IMG/VR virus record: IMGVR_UViG_3300042863_000355
From: an uncultured virus (IMG/VR IMGVR_UViG_3300042863_000355)
Lineage: Duplodnaviria; Heunggongvirae; Uroviricota; Caudoviricetes
DNA length: 20,000 nt
Reading direction: 5' to 3' (one strand)
How positions within the stretch are numbered: position 1 is the first letter of the stretch; the number at the start of each line of letters is the position of its first letter. This document shows positions 667 to 17,796 of this stretch, in pieces. A model generated the notes under the pieces. It had not been told where the DNA came from. It ran no database searches and was given only the letters and a program-made list of their open reading frames with translations. The position numbers were made by a program, and so were the translations under genes.

Positions 667-2232
667 ATGAATAATATGTTTAAAAATGGCGACGGTCAAT
701 CAATTACCCAACGTATCAATCAAACTGATGTTAAGACAACGTTATCTTGGCTTGAGCAGATGGTGGATCTTGATTTAATAAACAATTTGTCTAATGCTGA
801 TGAGCATAGTTTAGGAAAATTAGAGTTAACAATAGACTCTAATAAGATATCCCCTGATCAACTAATGGCTGAAATAACACAATGGTGTAATAGCCATGAA
901 CTGAAAGCAAGAGAATATGTAAAAAACTCAGGTTCGAGAATTTATTTTAGAACTCCTATTAACGGCAATCCTGCTAATGGGTACGTACAAACTGATTTTA
1001 GTTTCGTGACACCTAATGAAACTCACAATGAATCAGATATAAACTTTTTATCTAGATTACGTGATCGCATAGTTAACCAAGGTATGCTAAAATTAATTGA
1101 ATCAGATGAAGCCAAAATTAACGGTGGCAGAGCAAAAGGCATTGATCACATTGAAGATTTAGTATTTAGAAAAGGCACTAGCGGCATTAAAGATGCTTTG
1201 ACACATATTAAACATTTGATTAATGATACTGCAAGTAGTGCTACCGTAAAATGGGATGGCAAACCAGCCATTGTATTTGGTAGAGATGACGACGGTGAAT
1301 TTGTACTTACTGATATCAGTGGGTTCACTGCAACTGGGTATAATGGATTATTTACAAGTCCTGCTCATATTACTGAGAGGTTGTCTAATCGCGACAGTAA
1401 GTCAGCGACAATGGGAAAATTAGAGAATCGCGTAGAAGAACTTGGTCCAGTATACGAAATGCTATGGCCTATGTTAGAACAAGCTGTTCCTAGAAATTTC
1501 AAAGGTTTTGTACAAGGCGATTTACTTTATACTGAAACTCCAGATGAAGAATCTGGGGCATTAGTGTTTAAACCTAATACAATTGAATATAAGATTCCTG
1601 TTTCTTCTGATCTAGGTGAGGCAATTGCCAGTAGTCAAGTGGGTATTGCCATACATACTTACTATAAAGAACATCGTGCATCTAAGCAGCCTATTGGAAA
1701 AATGAAATTTAAATCAGTTCCAGGACTATTGTTAATTGAGCCAGTTAAACCAAAAGAAAATATTAAACCTACTGATTCAAGTTTACTTAGAGAATTACGT
1801 GAGTTATTAAAAGAAGGTGGAGCGTCTATTGATACATTGTTTAACCCAGCAGAACTTAGACAATTACAAATCAGTGACTTACCTCGGCTATGCGTAGATT
1901 ATATTAACAGCATAGTAAAAGATGAACTTGAGTCTAATTTTGATATTGATACATTACTCCCGCAGTTTGGAGAATGGTTAAAAGATCACGTAAGACCAAG
2001 AAAATATAACAATATAGTAGAATACTTACAAAGTCCACGTTCTAATATGATGGGTATTAGTGCAGCATTTGCGGCGTTTGTATTGATACACGAAATTAAG
2101 CTAGATTTACTACAACAGTTAGATCGTCAACACCCTGGGCACGAAGGCTGGGTAATTGCTACTCCTGGCGGACTTACTAAATTTGTTAATAGATTCGGGT
2201 TTACTAGAAATAACATTCAAAATAACGCATAA
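667..2232 (+). CDS. Fusion of a degenerate Pol-beta-like N-terminal domain and an ATP-dependent ligase/covalent nucleotidyltransferase-like domain (DUF6267-like phage family)
   Basis: TVKWDG (motif I, nt 1249-1260), VQGDLLY (III-like), EGWV (IV) and TKFV (V-like). The N-terminus resembles ORF 16195-17139. Confidence 0.6.
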   Translation: MNNMFKNGDGQSITQRINQTDVKTTLSWLEQMVDLDLINNLSNADEHSLGKLELTIDSNKISPDQLMAEITQWCNSHELKAREYVKNSGSRIYFRTPINGNPANGYVQTDFSFVTPNETHNESDINFLSRLRDRIVNQGMLKLIESDEAKINGGRAKGIDHIEDLVFRKGTSGIKDALTHIKHLINDTASSATVKWDGKPAIVFGRDDDGEFVLTDISGFTATGYNGLFTSPAHITERLSNRDSKSATMGKLENRVEELGPVYEMLWPMLEQAVPRNFKGFVQGDLLYTETPDEESGALVFKPNTIEYKIPVSSDLGEAIASSQVGIAIHTYYKEHRASKQPIGKMKFKSVPGLLLIEPVKPKENIKPTDSSLLRELRELLKEGGASIDTLFNPAELRQLQISDLPRLCVDYINSIVKDELESNFDIDTLLPQFGEWLKDHVRPRKYNNIVEYLQSPRSNMMGISAAFAAFVLIHEIKLDLLQQLDRQHPGHEGWVIATPGGLTKFVNRFGFTRNNIQNNA

Positions 2233-13570: not shown

Positions 13571-14221
13571 ATGTTAGAAACAATATGTGATATTATGATA
13601 GATGCTTACAAGCGTAATTGGATTACAAGTCGGGATGGCAATGTTAGTATTCGCCATCATGGGAGAGACCATTTTTATGTTACTCCAACTGGAGTTCGTA
13701 AACAAACTCTTCAACCTGATCAGTTTAAGAAAATTAAAATTAACCAGCATATTCAAAGTGGAGTTGGTACTGCGAAGTTTTCGCATAGTTGGGAAGATAT
13801 GCCGTATACTGATATAAGTACCAACTTGAAACCTAGTGGCGAAATACCCATGCACTTTGGTTTACAGAAAAATATTGATACTGAAGTGCGTGTAATTATG
13901 CACTTTCATCCCACCTATACTACAGCAGCAATGTACGCAGGTATTGACCTACCGAATCTACTCAATGAATTTCCAGAACTAAGTCGGTATACCTCAGTTG
14001 GTCCAACCGTTGGTGTATTACCTCCCATCACCCAAGACTTGGCTGACGCCTGTATAAAGAATATTGGATTCAATGATGATACAGGTGAGATTAAATATAA
14101 TATAATTGGTATGGATAGACACGGCGTTATTGCTGTTGACACAAGCCCATGGCGAGCATATGAGCACATTGAACGACTAGAGCACATTTGTAAGATAGTA
14201 CTTGCATCAAGAAAATATTAA
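13571..14221 (+). CDS. Class II aldolase/adducin family protein
   Basis: DGNVSIR, TPTG, KPSGE..MH, HFHP and RHG metal/catalytic motifs. SD AAGGA. Confidence 0.9.
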   Translation: MLETICDIMIDAYKRNWITSRDGNVSIRHHGRDHFYVTPTGVRKQTLQPDQFKKIKINQHIQSGVGTAKFSHSWEDMPYTDISTNLKPSGEIPMHFGLQKNIDTEVRVIMHFHPTYTTAAMYAGIDLPNLLNEFPELSRYTSVGPTVGVLPPITQDLADACIKNIGFNDDTGEIKYNIIGMDRHGVIAVDTSPWRAYEHIERLEHICKIVLASRKY

Positions 14222-15330
14222 TGAGTAAAGAACAATATAATTTAAGCACCAAGACAGACTATCTTAGTCGTAAAATGTTTCTAGATCCCGCTGGTCCAGT
14301 TACTATACAACGGTTTGAAGAAGTAAAGTATAATAAGTTAACAAAATTTGATGCTGAAGCTAGAGGATTCTTTTGGGTTCCAGAAGAAATTTCCCTAACA
14401 AAAGATGCAGGCGATTTTAAAGACGCTAGTGATACTGTTAAACATATCTTCACTAGTAACTTGTTGCGTCAAACAGCCTTAGATAGTGTACAAGGCCGCG
14501 GCCCCACACAAGTGTTTACACCTGTATGTTCTATTCCCGAACTTGAAGCATTGATGTATAACTGGGGATTCTTTGAAACAAATATCCATAGTCGTTCGTA
14601 TAGTCATATTATTCGCAATATCTATAATGTGCCAAAGGATGTGTTTAACACAATCCATGATACACAAGAAATTATTAGTATGGCGAGTAGTATTGGAAAA
14701 TACTATGACTATCTACATAGATTAAATTGTCGCAAAGAGCTAAATGATAATGGGTATGCAGTTGATGAGCGTGAACATATCAAGGCAATTTGGCTAGCAC
14801 TACATGCTAGCTACGCTCTTGAAGCATTCCGTTTCATGGTATCATTTGCCACAAGTTTAGCAATGGTTGAGAATCGTATCTTTATTGGCAATGGTAATAT
14901 TATCGGGTTAATTTTACAAGACGAAATCTTACACAAAGAGTGGACAGCTTGGATTATCAATCAGGTTGTTAAGGAAGATTCCAGATTTGCCAGTATCAAG
15001 GGTGAATGCGAAGCCGAAGTATATCAAATATACCTAGATGTTATTCGTGAAGAAAAAGAATGGGCGGATTACTTGTTCAACAAGGGTCCAGTCATTGGAC
15101 TTAACGCTAATATTCTTAAAGAATTTGTTGACTTTACTGCGGTAGCAGCACTAAAGGAAATTGGTATCAAGTATCAAGGATCAGCACCAAGAACTACACC
15201 AATCCCATGGTTTAACAAACATGTTAATGTAAGCAATAAACAATCGGCATTACAAGAAACTGAAAGTACAAACTATGTAATTGGTGTTATGAGTGATACA
15301 CTAGACTACGATGAGTTGCCTAGTTTATAA
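14221..15330 (+). CDS. nrdB: Ribonucleotide reductase class Ia beta subunit
   Basis: FFWVPEEI, QTALDSVQGR, ETNIHSRSY, LEAFRF, DEILH and QETE...Y. Confidence 0.97.
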   Translation: MSKEQYNLSTKTDYLSRKMFLDPAGPVTIQRFEEVKYNKLTKFDAEARGFFWVPEEISLTKDAGDFKDASDTVKHIFTSNLLRQTALDSVQGRGPTQVFTPVCSIPELEALMYNWGFFETNIHSRSYSHIIRNIYNVPKDVFNTIHDTQEIISMASSIGKYYDYLHRLNCRKELNDNGYAVDEREHIKAIWLALHASYALEAFRFMVSFATSLAMVENRIFIGNGNIIGLILQDEILHKEWTAWIINQVVKEDSRFASIKGECEAEVYQIYLDVIREEKEWADYLFNKGPVIGLNANILKEFVDFTAVAALKEIGIKYQGSAPRTTPIPWFNKHVNVSNKQSALQETESTNYVIGVMSDTLDYDELPSL

Positions 15331-15334
15331 TTAA

Positions 15335-16198
15335 TTAGAAAGTCTGTTGAACTAGTTTCAACGACTTTTCTTTTTCAGCACCTTTCTGTGTGCCTATTTC
15401 ACCAGACTTAACTGAAATCATAGACGCAAACAAACCTTTAATCCGTTCTCTACTGCGCGGATTTTTAACTCTACTATTAATCGCTGAAACTAATTCAACA
15501 AATTTAAAATCAAAACTCGTCATTCCCAACAACGAATGGACATGAAAGAAATCTGTAGAAGTCCATATTATTTCCCTACTAACTTGTTTATATGTTCCCG
15601 GCTCGTATTGTACTCGTCTTAACTGTAATTCATTGCTGGATAAATTAAATTCGTACTCTTGGTCTTGACCTAATACACCTGGGTCAGAAATATCAAGTCT
15701 ATCAAATAGTTTATCAGCGGAATTTTCTAATATAGCAACTTTTACCAATCCCAGTACTAGGCCTTGAATTGATGCAGGCATATTTAAAAATTTTCTTTTA
15801 AAATTAGCTTCGGCATAATCCCTAGCAATGATGCTATCAATCTGTGCCGAATATCCTAATTCTTTATCATAGTATCTTATAGTTACAATCTCACCTGAGT
15901 TGTATGTACGACGACCTAAATATTTAGGATTGCTGAAGGGTACAATGACATCTTCTGGTTGGTTGTGGAAAAATTCAACTAATGATTTTTTAAGAGTTGT
16001 CTTAGTAAGCACGGTAGGAATAGTTACAATTAAATCTATATCACCAAATGTCTGTTTATCCTTATCAGCGGCATAACTGCCAGTGTAATATAATATATTA
16101 TTTTCACAAAACTGATGAATAAGTTTTGAATAACCTCCGACAAATTGGACATAGTCCTCACGACTTCTGACTCTTTCTGCTCCTGCTACTCCGCTCAT
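15335..16198 (-). CDS. Pol-beta/PolX-like nucleotidyltransferase (NTase B)
   Basis: YTGSY...TFGDIDLIV with a third Asp in AQIDSI. ATGA-coupled to the upstream NTase. Confidence 0.75.
   Translation of the reverse strand: MSGVAGAERVRSREDYVQFVGGYSKLIHQFCENNILYYTGSYAADKDKQTFGDIDLIVTIPTVLTKTTLKKSLVEFFHNQPEDVIVPFSNPKYLGRRTYNSGEIVTIRYYDKELGYSAQIDSIIARDYAEANFKRKFLNMPASIQGLVLGLVKVAILENSADKLFDRLDISDPGVLGQDQEYEFNLSSNELQLRRVQYEPGTYKQVSREIIWTSTDFFHVHSLLGMTSFDFKFVELVSAINSRVKNPRSRERIKGLFASMISVKSGEIGTQKGAEKEKSLKLVQQTF
15339..15375 (+). terminator. Putative intrinsic terminator for nrdB, embedded in the antisense CDS
   Basis: AAAGTC-t-GTTGAA-ctagt-TTCAAC-GACTTT followed by TCTTTTT. Confidence 0.55.
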
Positions 16199-17139
16199 GA
16201 CAACACCTTTAATTTAGAATTTTCTGGTAAAAACTTTCCTGATAATACTAATCTATCTTTACGACCAATCCATTCCTCTTGTAAATTATCAGGAATGTCA
16301 GCTCTAGTAGAATCTAAAATCTTAAAGTATGTGTCAAGCATCTTACTATACTTTTCAGAATCTAATTGTTTAGCCAGCGTTTCACCAAGAACATAATAGT
16401 CTGCGACAATATCCGTAGTAAGCGTAGTGCCTAATCGTTCATTAAGAATAGACAATGCTTGTACTGGATTTCGTGCTAACCATTCTTTAGTAGTTTTATC
16501 TCTAACGCCAATGCCATGACTAAATGACAAGTCAGCAACTTGAAACGCAGATAACATTAGCTGTGTGCGATGTAGGCCTTTTACATTAGAATCATCTGGG
16601 TACGCCGCTGAATAGTAACTAAAGCGCAGCCAGTCTAGGTCGCCAATCATCCAATCAATCTGAACACATTCACCTGTGTCATTACCATTCAAGTCTTTTT
16701 GTGGATAATATCCAAAAATGCTGCTGTCTGTTACTTTCTTTTCATCACAATGTATTGTAGGAGCATGTAGGTTAATATAACGTACAAGATTTAGCAAAAA
16801 TGCCTTCATACACAATTGATCATCCGATGCTGTTCTTGATCGGCTCTTTAATAAATTAAATGTTTCCTCAAACTCAGTAACGGTAAGATTCCACGATTTT
16901 AATTCATTTGCTAAATTATCAGTATGTACATCAAAAATATAATGATTATTGATGCCTAAATCAATATCACCCGACACCGGCTTCTTGTTAACAGAGCCTA
17001 GAGTTTCAAAATAATGCATATTAAAGATTACTTGATGTGGAAATAGATTCTCCAACTCGGCAAAGTATGCCTTTAGTGTAGGAAGGATATTTTCTCTAAG
17101 AATTGGTGCTGTTTTATCAGCAAATACGTTACCGCCCAT
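16195..17139 (-). CDS. Pol-beta/PolX-like nucleotidyltransferase (NTase A)
   Basis: TLGSVNKKPVSGDIDLGI with a third Asp in VQIDWM. SD GGAG at 17145-17148 (minus strand). Confidence 0.78.
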   Translation of the reverse strand: MGGNVFADKTAPILRENILPTLKAYFAELENLFPHQVIFNMHYFETLGSVNKKPVSGDIDLGINNHYIFDVHTDNLANELKSWNLTVTEFEETFNLLKSRSRTASDDQLCMKAFLLNLVRYINLHAPTIHCDEKKVTDSSIFGYYPQKDLNGNDTGECVQIDWMIGDLDWLRFSYYSAAYPDDSNVKGLHRTQLMLSAFQVADLSFSHGIGVRDKTTKEWLARNPVQALSILNERLGTTLTTDIVADYYVLGETLAKQLDSEKYSKMLDTYFKILDSTRADIPDNLQEEWIGRKDRLVLSGKFLPENSKLKVLS

Positions 17140-17167
17140 GATTACTCCGATTGATTATAATACAAAT

Positions 17168-17196
17168 AGTATAGTTTAGAATGAATTAAATGTCAA
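17168..17196 (-). promoter_or_regulatory. Near-consensus sigma70 promoter of the NTase operon
   Basis: On the minus strand: TTGACA (17196-17191), 17 bp, TATACT (17173-17168). Confidence 0.85.
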
Positions 17197-17212
17197 GTGC
17201 TACTAGTAATGT

Positions 17213-17220
17213 ACTAAATA
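17213..17220 (+). promoter_or_regulatory. Putative late promoter ACTAAATA
   Basis: Upstream of SD AAGGA (17243-17247) of the glutaredoxin gene. Confidence 0.6.
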
Positions 17221-17252
17221 TTGTGCTAAAATACAACGTTATAAGGAATAAT

Positions 17253-17495
17253 ATGTTAACAGTTTATACCAAGGACGATTGCCCGTTTTGTGATCGCGCC
17301 AAGGCATTATTAGAAAGTAAAGGTATTGAATATACTACAGTAAATGTAGGTATTCGTACAGAAGCTCGTGACTATTTGGTTGAGCAAGGATTGCGTAGTG
17401 TACCACAGATTTTCAATGGTACAACATTAATTCAGGGCGGGTATCAAGGATTGGCCAGTAAGCCAGAAGAATTTTGGACAGAATTAAAAGGATAA
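17253..17495 (+). CDS. grx: Glutaredoxin (start revised to 17253)
   Basis: MLTVYTKDDCPFC...RSVPQIF...GGY. SD just upstream of ATG 17253. Confidence 0.93.
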   Translation: MLTVYTKDDCPFCDRAKALLESKGIEYTTVNVGIRTEARDYLVEQGLRSVPQIFNGTTLIQGGYQGLASKPEEFWTELKG

Positions 17496-17496
17496 T

Positions 17497-17796
17497 ATGG
17501 AAATTAAAGATAACGAAGTATACACATTTAAGATGGCATCAGGCGAAGAAATAGTCACAAAAGTATTAAGTTCAGATGTTGACTATATCTATATCACAGA
17601 GCCATTAGCAGTAGCACCTAGTCCACAGGGTCCGGCATTAATGCAAGGCATTTTTACTTCAGAACCAGGGACAAAAGTATCACTAAATATTAAGCACATC
17701 GCAATGTTTGCCGAAACTGAAGACGGCGTTAGACAGCGATACATTAAAGTTACTACTGGAATTGACGTTCCAAGCAAGAAACTTATTTTAGGATAA
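17497..17796 (+). CDS. Small phage protein, probable Sm/SH3-like beta-barrel
   Basis: TFKMASGEEIVTKV...ITEPL pattern followed by a C-terminal helix. The fold is inferred. Confidence 0.55.
   Translation: MEIKDNEVYTFKMASGEEIVTKVLSSDVDYIYITEPLAVAPSPQGPALMQGIFTSEPGTKVSLNIKHIAMFAETEDGVRQRYIKVTTGIDVPSKKLILG

Follow-up and report, generated by a model that had tools for sequence, protein, structure and literature searches.

A linked pair of predicted miniature family-X-like nucleotidyltransferases inserted between nrdB and grx in a clade of large T4-like phages

Family-X polymerases occur in cells, in giant viruses and in African swine fever virus (ASFV), and ASFV Pol X (174 aa; PDB 5hr9) is a minimal form of the family, with no 8-kDa or fingers domain and with a GS...DxD...D active site. 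This report concerns two small genes, here called A and B, whose products appear by predicted fold to share that minimal plan. They lie in tandem between nrdB and the glutaredoxin gene grx, as the only long minus-strand open reading frames (ORFs) in a 20,000-nt window (the whole stretch of DNA that was analysed, given as one strand, in which plus-strand genes predominate) from an uncultured virus of the Caudoviricetes, IMG/VR record IMGVR_UViG_3300042863_000355. The likeness of A and B to polymerases is one of fold, seen in predicted models. They differ from ASFV Pol X in an extra helical C-terminus of 50-70 residues, in a helical palm insert of ~60 residues in A, in the acidity of A and in being two diverged enzymes in tandem; their sequence identity with the palm-thumb of ASFV Pol X, Pol beta, Pol lambda and TdT is 11%, and they fall outside Pfam membership. 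A first-pass annotation of the window had described a self-contained antisense cassette of two coupled PolX/Pol-beta-like enzymes, and its sequence observations were rechecked (ORFs, promoter, Shine-Dalgarno site, overlap, motifs, divergence and flanks) and proved accurate in every detail.

A second point of comparison lies in the IPI-III and Alt proteins of phage T4, which we take to carry a capsid-targeting sequence (CTS), to be cleaved by gp21 and to be ejected with the DNA. Relatives of A carry leaders of similar form (e.g. MKTFAQYLAE and MKSFVEFITE) that end in (L/I)xE, and Peptidase_S77 is encoded in genomes of relatives; in contrast, A and B of the window have neither leader nor junction, and the relatives' products would be packaged judging from their sequences. 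A third comparison is with RlaP (PF10127), which is treated in parts of PMC12776372 and PMC7824862 as a Pol-beta nucleotidyltransferase (NTase) that adds one or two nucleoside monophosphates to the 3' ends of damaged RNA ahead of sealing. The logic common to RlaP and, by analogy, to A and B would be the genetic linkage of an enzyme of the Pol-beta superfamily to a ligase. Unlike RlaP, A and B gave no match to PF10127 at E up to 1, and their partner is DUF6267 or a protein with a sub-threshold RNA_ligase-like match, not a proven ligase. Finally, the sections of PMC5512222 (Iyer et al. 2017) used here describe multi-enzyme injected proteins of phages and conjugative elements (polyvalent proteins), which relatives of the pair resemble in having long proteins that combine A, B, a HIGH-motif NTase, GNAT, a peptidase-like segment with HExxH, ParB_N and an Acb1-like domain. 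The window pair is unlike these in consisting of two separate small genes, and the Pol-beta NTase described in those sections is a minimal four-strand firmicute form.

Literature searches on phage PolX/Pol-beta-like enzymes and on capsid cargo returned no paper on a tandem mini-PolX pair in tailed phages, and a search on DUF6267 found no paper. One section of PMC7824862 (Iyer et al. 2021) reports a 'split minimal Pol III alpha' in group 2.2 jumbo phages including Atu_ph07; no accession in that section agrees with the A-like family described below, and the paper may bear on priority. What is new is the leaderless, promoter-bearing antisense insertion, the way it differs from the fused form with a leader that occupies this site in a sister group, and the link to DUF6267. 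The account put forward, tentatively and at somewhat less than an even chance, is that of an obligate mini-PolX pair, transcribed from its own promoter and cytoplasmic, which would extend 3' ends for sealing by the DUF6267 protein.

Fold, linkage and insertion of the pair

Both proteins keep the residues that the first-pass annotation had picked out, GS-x(7-10)-GDIDL and a later QID: A has G48-S49, seven residues, G57-D-I-D-L61 and then Q160-I-D162, and B has G40-S41, ten residues, G52-D-I-D-L56 and then Q119-I-D121. The GS, the DxD and the third Asp vary hardly or not at all across 60 aligned homologues of A and 58 of B. AlphaFold2 (AF2) models, built on 60 and 58 homologues, have a predicted local distance difference test (pLDDT) score of 93.4 for A and 92.7 for B, and their top Foldseek matches are Pol beta for A (E 5e-6) and Pol lambda for B (E 6e-7). 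When each model was aligned against 48,161 representative chains in a VIA structure search, family-X polymerases filled the top nine rows for A and the top seven for B. The matches of A were ASFV Pol X (5hr9; Z 9.2, 166 residues aligned to a chain of 176), Pol beta (4rpx; 9.2), TdT (8.8), Pol lambda (8.7) and Thermus PolX (8.4), with other NTase classes at Z <=6.8; those of B were the Pol beta palm-thumb (Z 12.5), TdT (12.4), Pol lambda (11.9) and ASFV Pol X (11.1, 165 residues aligned to the chain of 176). These family-X alignments cover ~165-185 residues of palm and thumb (166-178 in A and 165-183 in B), spanning Pol beta 142-335 and the entire ASFV Pol X chain, and include a PolX-type thumb adjoining the palm. 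By contrast, terminal uridylyl- and poly(A)-polymerases and CD-NTases align over only ~100 palm residues, the CD-NTases with Z scores of 7-9 (B) and 4-5 (A). Neither model has an 8-kDa dRP-lyase or helix-hairpin-helix fingers domain: both start at the palm, and residue 142 is the first of the aligned Pol beta range. The palm-plus-thumb alignment and the conserved triad argue that each protein is a palm-plus-thumb mini-PolX with an added helical C-terminus; as modelled, A and B are miniature family-X-like NTases that retain all three catalytic carboxylates, and the fold proposed at first pass for both is upheld by the AF2 models, Foldseek and VIA. Within a library of predicted viral structures, the nearest annotated proteins were giant-virus PolX enzymes, and the phage relatives were all 'uncharacterized'.

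By sequence, neither protein has a match above threshold in Pfam, PHROGs, PADLOC or NCBIfam, A has no DNA_pol_B_palm or thumb match, and sequence-profile searches of the PDB with A and B found no polymerase. B does match DNA_pol_B_palm (PF14792) at 16.2 bits (cut-off 25) and NTP_transf_2 at 15.8 bits (cut-off 21), both below threshold. A and B are also as strongly diverged from one another as had been noted, so that paralogy is not demonstrable by BLASTP (E 0.84) or by hhalign (probability 1.4%), although GS, DIDL and QID fall in register in the hhalign alignment despite that probability. Over B residues 74-133 (window ~15800-15979), the B-family profile instead matches phycobilisome linker repeat domains (9k9w_M2, E 4e-6, in three stretches; Pfam PBS_linker_poly, E 0.006), probably through local sequence resemblance.

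Relatives are numerous in metagenomic-scale data, with 1,746 for A and 341 for B when counted as 90%-identity cluster representatives in a 5.8-billion-protein collection, many of them on contigs of 150-360 kb. A megablast search of the cassette region against 50,697 phage records gave no match, and tblastn matched only Flavobacterium phage immuto, in four records. Among cultured phages, close homologues were found in immuto only, where gp089, the A homologue, is followed directly by gp088, a protein of 907 aa whose first ~285 residues are B-like. Linkage was surveyed in 81 loci plus the window (82 sources); several loci are near-identical, and the counts are therefore not independent. A was detected in 80 of the 82 sources, both misses being cut by locus ends, and B lies downstream on the same strand in 76 of these 80, forming a single ORF with A in nine. 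The remaining four loci end 16 to 1,717 nt past A, and the ORF caller reports only stop-closed ORFs. One to three small ORFs separate A and B in 11 loci, and overlap, direct adjacency and complete fusion are all seen at the A-B junction in relatives. The linkage of A followed by B is strict, and the tight co-occurrence, with fusion in some relatives, supports the coupled pair described at first pass.

Prediction of the A+B complex gave a score of 0.51 against 0.00 for the best control, with at least 97% of contacts shared between runs and a partner pLDDT of at least 87. In the benchmark, 0.51 was reached by 116 of 157 solved complexes and by 2 of 215 mismatched pairs, and the passes at <=0.60 comprised 18 of the 157 solved complexes together with both mismatches. 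The prediction thus lends weak support to the heterodimer suggested at first pass.

In the window and 15 further loci (A at least 60% identical), the pair is found between grx and nrdB, antisense to every neighbouring gene. For comparison, 80 loci (L090-L169) were chosen by NrdB (80-86% identical), and these keep the gene order of the window: exonuclease, tail spike, nrdA, an optional aldolase, nrdB, grx and PAAR. Neither A nor B occurs in any of the 80, in which grx follows straight after nrdB or is preceded by same-strand inserts of ~63-499 codons (136, 239 and 401 recurring). The nrdB|grx junction (window 15331-17252) looks like a hot spot of gene insertion, and the pair is inserted there in reverse orientation in one clade of ~350-kb T4-like phages, the genome size being estimated from a 157-kb contig scored as 45% complete. 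The antisense placement in the window clade and the absence of the pair from all 80 syntenic loci support the description of the cassette as mobile. Within the remaining ~60 A-bearing loci, the pair is co-oriented with its neighbours, in a conserved setting of DnaJ, deformylase, a ClpB-like ATPase, three small ORFs, A, B and, farther on, a family-B DNA polymerase.

Two kinds of additional small ORF accompany the pair in the window clade, and the window has neither. In four loci (L004:5319-5732, L007:3733-4143, L015:10939-11325 and L020:6828-7214), A and B are separated by an ORF of 128-137 aa (MTTAW.HLPNA..., with many W, D and A residues); the copies are 43-58% identical and have no Pfam match. 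In five close relatives, L004-L008, the cassette strand has an 81-aa ORF, placed between grx and the promoter (e.g. L005:9689-9934). In some relatives a gene for a 5-hmdU DNA kinase-like protein is close to the pair, or a radical SAM gene separates A from B (L040:6317-7483; L079:9251-10201); such neighbours may link to DNA modification.

DUF6267 and the work of the pair

Upstream in the window lies a gene for a DUF6267 protein whose N-terminal A-like domain is degenerate (Table 1). A complete cassette-free relative (344,244 bp with terminal repeats; NrdB 86% identical), which has no B and no close A, encodes ~11 kb upstream of nrdB a DUF6267 protein of 653 aa that reads MNIFE|GGNVF, then GS..SGDLDIA..QTDF and then DUF6267. 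The window gene is its orthologue, in which the protein begins MNNMF, the GS is gone, GKLEL replaces GDLDV and ~110 residues are deleted. The DUF6267 proteins of 121 near relatives comprise 92 with an intact long A-like domain, 8 with a long domain that fails a strict motif test, 15 with a degenerate short one and 6 fragments; in 80 viral-contig loci, the N-terminal domain is intact in 58, dead in 13 and cut in 9. When records are sorted by cassette, the domain is dead in all five that carry the pair (the window, G002, G003, G004 and G011) and intact in all ten that have nrdB, room downstream of it and no B anywhere (G006-G009, G012, G014, G015, G019, G022 and G023), two of these ten being 100% and 89% complete. 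Omitted from this comparison were G017 and G018, whose nrdB is at the end of a contig, and G027, whose domain is cut. The pattern is suggestive of replacement and is no statistical proof.

As to what DUF6267 itself does, the residues most conserved across 150 diverse members are K195-x-D-G, D216, D285, E493-G-x-V and K505/R509, which we take to be the motif I, III, IV and V pattern of covalent nucleotidyltransferases. Conservation of the protein extends to T4-like cyanophages, Pelagibacter phage HTVC008M and others, where its annotation is in every case 'hypothetical protein'. Elsewhere, A-like genes are found near genes for proteins with KxDG. Atu_ph07 and Phosso each have an A-like gene (profile E 2.8e-14) that overlaps a gene beginning ..EKLDG.., whose product has a full-length, sub-threshold match to Pfam RNA_ligase (18.7 bits, E 0.002), and in PA5oct an A-like gene, gp253 (33 bits to the A profile), lies three genes downstream of gp256, which has EKIDG and a C-terminal stretch (EGYV..KIVDK) that matches the DUF6267 profile. 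None of these partners, whether DUF6267 or the KxDG proteins of Atu_ph07, Phosso and PA5oct, reaches a ligase family threshold. With Pfam at E up to 10, the DUF6267 protein matched DUF6267 only, and in a profile search of 1.84 billion representatives the best 150 were all strong DUF6267 members, with no bridge to a named family. That DUF6267 is a ligase-like enzyme has roughly even odds, judging from its sequence.

On the account favoured here, A and B would work together, probably as a heterodimer in which the basic B holds nucleic acid, and would add nucleotides to the 3' ends of damaged RNA or DNA; the ligase-like DUF6267 protein would then seal the extended ends. The pair would have taken over the role of the A-like domain that DUF6267 carries in cassette-free relatives, and the substrate could be either RNA (tRNA repair against host nucleases) or DNA (gap filling). 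It is the link to DUF6267, with its ligase-like motifs, that favours end extension before sealing, and we infer nucleic-acid end repair or extension by A and B on the analogy of PolX and ligase in base-excision repair, or of RlaP and RNA ligase.

Several points weigh against this account. As modelled, A and B have neither the fingers nor the 8-kDa domain of cellular PolX. The window A has a pI of 5.3 (family median 6.9), an acidity unlike that of a typical DNA-binding polymerase; with B mildly basic and its residues 233-287 at pI 10.4, a division of labour within a dimer would fit, yet the acidity counts against A binding DNA alone. The ligase interpretation of DUF6267 draws on motifs, PDB phmmer and profile searches with DUF6267 gave 0 matches, and hhalign of DUF6267 against the ligase-like protein of Atu_ph07 gave a probability of 0.6%. 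The Atlas lead from DUF6267 to RNA_ligase is weak: RNA_ligase is the first Pfam-named family besides the DUF6267 clusters (row 4), at a score of only 0.77, and 48% of the members of that cluster carry it. The pairing of cassette and dead domain may trace to a single ancestral event, in which case 5 versus 10 records are not 15 independent observations. Moreover, the pair is present in a 99%-complete genome, G005, that has no DUF6267 match, and is therefore not always dependent on DUF6267.

The last such point is that the relatives' fusions involve HIGH-motif nucleotidyltransferases, an Acb1-like phosphodiesterase, GNAT and FMN reductase, which fit an anti-signalling or NAD role as well as repair. 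Unlikely, yet the strongest of the alternatives, is a counter-defence by nucleotide chemistry, in which the pair would make, cap or consume small nucleotides (signal decoys, NAD-related compounds or sponges); its partners would be the HIGH-motif (NMNAT/PPAT-like) transferase and the Acb1-like phosphodiesterase that are fused to B or DUF6267 in relatives. CTP_transf_like is fused to B in eight of the ten B-family fusions scanned, plus further cases, one B is fused to FMN reductase, and the 54 DUF6267 fusions scanned include four with Acb1 (anti-CBASS) and seven with CTP_transf_like. The palm fold, moreover, is common to CD-NTases and OAS (Z 7-9 with B), and the B homologue of immuto is annotated NadR/NMNAT and lies near an 'NAD synthetase' gene. 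However, the CD-NTase matches extend over the palm only, in contrast to the palm and thumb matched by PolX enzymes, and PADLOC found no match. No HIGH-motif transferase adjoins the pair in the window clade, and a look at three partial records from that clade likewise turned up none. Should the fusions be polyproteins that a protease cuts, what they show is co-delivery rather than a common pathway. Acb1 itself is one of the 2H phosphoesterases, a group with members that also act in the healing of RNA ends.

Expression in the cell or loading into the capsid

In the leaders and junctions of A and B, the window copy and most relatives differ. An N-terminal extension ending in (L/I/V/M)-x-E immediately ahead of GGNVF is present in 54 of 80 A proteins, often as a leader of 7-17 residues (such as MRIRELLSE, as well as the two cited above) and in a few cases as a long one with HExxH. 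Another 23 have M or MM straight before GGNVF (once GGHVF), and three are ambiguous. The junctions of fused A-B proteins read ..NMTE|SGVAG, ..HLGE|SGSTG and ..KLTE|SGVAG; B almost never has a leader of its own, although a few separate B proteins start MIDE, MINE or MIIE ahead of SG. These leaders and junctions resemble what we take to be the T4 CTS and the gp21 cleavage rule, and Peptidase_S77 (the T4 gp21-type protease) was found in three of the five records searched, namely G002 of the sister clade, the 353-kb relative G005, and immuto. Most relatives would accordingly seem to make the pair with a T4-type leader and protease-cut junctions for capsid loading. In the window, A starts M-GGNVF and B M-SGVAG, with no (L/I)xE leader, no protease-type junction and no upstream in-frame start for A. 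Removal of the initiator Met before Gly or Ser would yield the same mature ends in leaderless copies.

The sigma-70-like promoter of the window cassette, TTGACA-17-TATACT, is the top-scoring promoter-like site within 14800-17700, a region in which no terminator-like site was found. The pattern TTGACA-N17-TAKAMT, which was written after the site had been seen, occurs once in the window versus 0.03 expected. Upstream of A in all five leaderless split relatives that were aligned (L004, L005, L007, L008 and L015), TTGAC(A/G)-17-TATAAT is kept while the flanks diverge. In a sister subclade (L010-L014 and L063), this antisense locus is occupied by a single fused ORF whose leader is MKIFEVLTRGIAE, and in the three of these that were aligned (L010, L012 and L014) CTAAATAT stands just upstream in place of the TTGACA promoter. 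CTAAATAT resembles CTAAATAC, which occurs on the plus strand of the window at 2267, 3842, 4545 and 8719, 24-45 nt before plus-strand genes at 2313, 3867, 4575 and 8749 that include virion structural protein and tail-spike genes. Over both strands of the window, CTAAATAC has five matches versus 1.2 expected; the 7-mer CTAAATA alone, a late-promoter motif of T4-like cyanophages, is not enriched there (10 matches versus 6.7 expected). The CTAAATAT/CTAAATAC motif is probably the late promoter of this phage group. A copy of CTAAATAT also lies at 17214-17220 (+), 33 nt ahead of the likely grx start.

The lack of leader and junction in the window copy, together with the conserved sigma-70-like promoter, argues for expression from a host-type promoter and against capsid cargo, and the window pair is probably made in the cell, early, rather than delivered in the capsid. 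The host polymerase would transcribe it from this promoter, and its products would act in the cytoplasm. The first-pass term 'self-contained' is doubtful: in most relatives the genes are co-oriented with their neighbours and have CTS-like leaders and further enzyme fusions. In the lineage of the window, moreover, presence of the pair is accompanied by decay of the A-like domain of DUF6267.

Less probable again than nucleotide chemistry is that A and B are capsid cargo here too, packed without leaders (e.g. bound to other cargo) and injected, the promoter-like site being incidental or used in the late phase. The CTS-like leaders of the majority and the (L/M)xE junctions of the fusions speak for it, as does the annotation of the distant A-like gp253 of PA5oct as 'structural protein, ESI-MS/MS'; and because B almost always lacks its own leader, piggy-back loading must exist if B is cargo. 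Against it stand the start of the window A, the retention of the sigma-70-like promoter in leaderless split relatives when the fused, leader-bearing form has a different upstream motif, and the occurrence of the leaderless form in several clades, which makes it common. A weapon, in which A and/or B, like MenT/AbiEii or a minimal NTase antitoxin, would modify a host protein or tRNA by nucleotidylation for host shut-down or phage exclusion, is very improbable: MenT1 is among the palm-level fold matches (Z 8.2 for B, 4.9 for A) and Pol-beta NTases in mobile-element polyvalent proteins are proposed, in the sections of PMC5512222 used here, to NMPylate proteins, but both A and B have a PolX-type thumb that minimal NTases lack, no toxin, antitoxin or defence model matches either of them, and the family in those sections is a four-strand minimal NTase of firmicute elements with another architecture.

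Neighbouring features and wider meaning

The coordinates of the cassette, its nrdB flank and the DUF6267 gene are collected in Table 1. The second flank is grx, for which 17253 is a likelier start than 17190, given a Pfam match that sets in only at residue 24 and an AAGGA ahead of the ATG at 17253; with that start, the divergent intergenic region is 113 nt.

Table 1. Features of the cassette, the nrdB flank and the DUF6267 gene, in window coordinates
Feature	Position	Strand	Details
Gene A	16195..17139	-	314-aa ORF; starts M-GGNVF; G48-S49, D58-x-D60, D162
Gene B	15335..16198	-	287-aa ORF; starts M-SGVAG; G40-S41, D53-x-D55, D121; basic helical tail at end
ATGA stop/start overlap coupling A and B	16195..16198	-	sequence: B ATG 16198-16196, A TGA 16197-16195
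GGAG ribosome-binding site of gene A	17145..17148	-	sequence: 5 nt ahead of ATG at 17139
AAGGTG, purine-rich ribosome-binding site of gene B	16204..16209	-	sequence: 5 nt ahead of B ATG
Sigma-70-like promoter: TTGACA (17196-17191), 17-nt spacer, TATACT (17173-17168)	17168..17196	-	11/12 positions
Gap between convergent nrdB and B stops, no terminator	15331..15334	.	4 nt
nrdB	14221..15330	+	flank of cassette
DUF6267 gene with degenerate N-terminal A-like domain	667..2232	+	Pfam DUF6267 E 1.7e-35

Other genes of the window encode NifU, peptide deformylase, IscA, a PD-(D/E)XK exonuclease, a tail-spike-like protein, NrdA, a class II aldolase, NrdB, glutaredoxin and a PAAR protein, and no tRNA genes were found in it. 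The aldolase gene, which has a class II aldolase/adducin domain, lies at 13571-14221 between nrdA and nrdB, a place where relatives are variable and several have other ORFs. The product of the ORF at 5-664 has repeats of the NTAKPGNP type at its N-terminus, and its match to Rit1_C (E 5.5e-4) is weak and below threshold. In L005, L006 and several loci among L090-L169, nrdA is in two pieces around a 255-codon ORF, and other relatives have ORFs of 200-400 codons within the nrd cluster; the interrupting ORFs may be homing endonucleases or inteins.

A broader form of the end-repair account, which is doubtful as it stands, would see in large aquatic phages a modular, previously undescribed nucleic-acid-end kit that toggles in evolution between a leader-tagged polyprotein, made late, cut by protease and injected from the capsid, and, as in the window, a split operon without leaders under an early promoter of host type, the arrival of the pair at nrdB|grx having made the polymerase domain of DUF6267 redundant. 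The members of the kit would be the two mini-PolX enzymes, the ligase-like DUF6267 enzyme, the HIGH-motif transferase and the 2H/Acb1-like esterase. If this is true, the decay of the DUF6267 domain amounts to a natural complementation experiment that places the pair and DUF6267 in one pathway.

More generally, the cassette and the dead domain together make a concrete, testable prediction of functional partnership. If the pair does extend damaged ends for a ligase-like partner, it would represent a widespread phage system of repair or counter-defence with two routes of delivery, as well as a source of very small polymerase-like enzymes for study.

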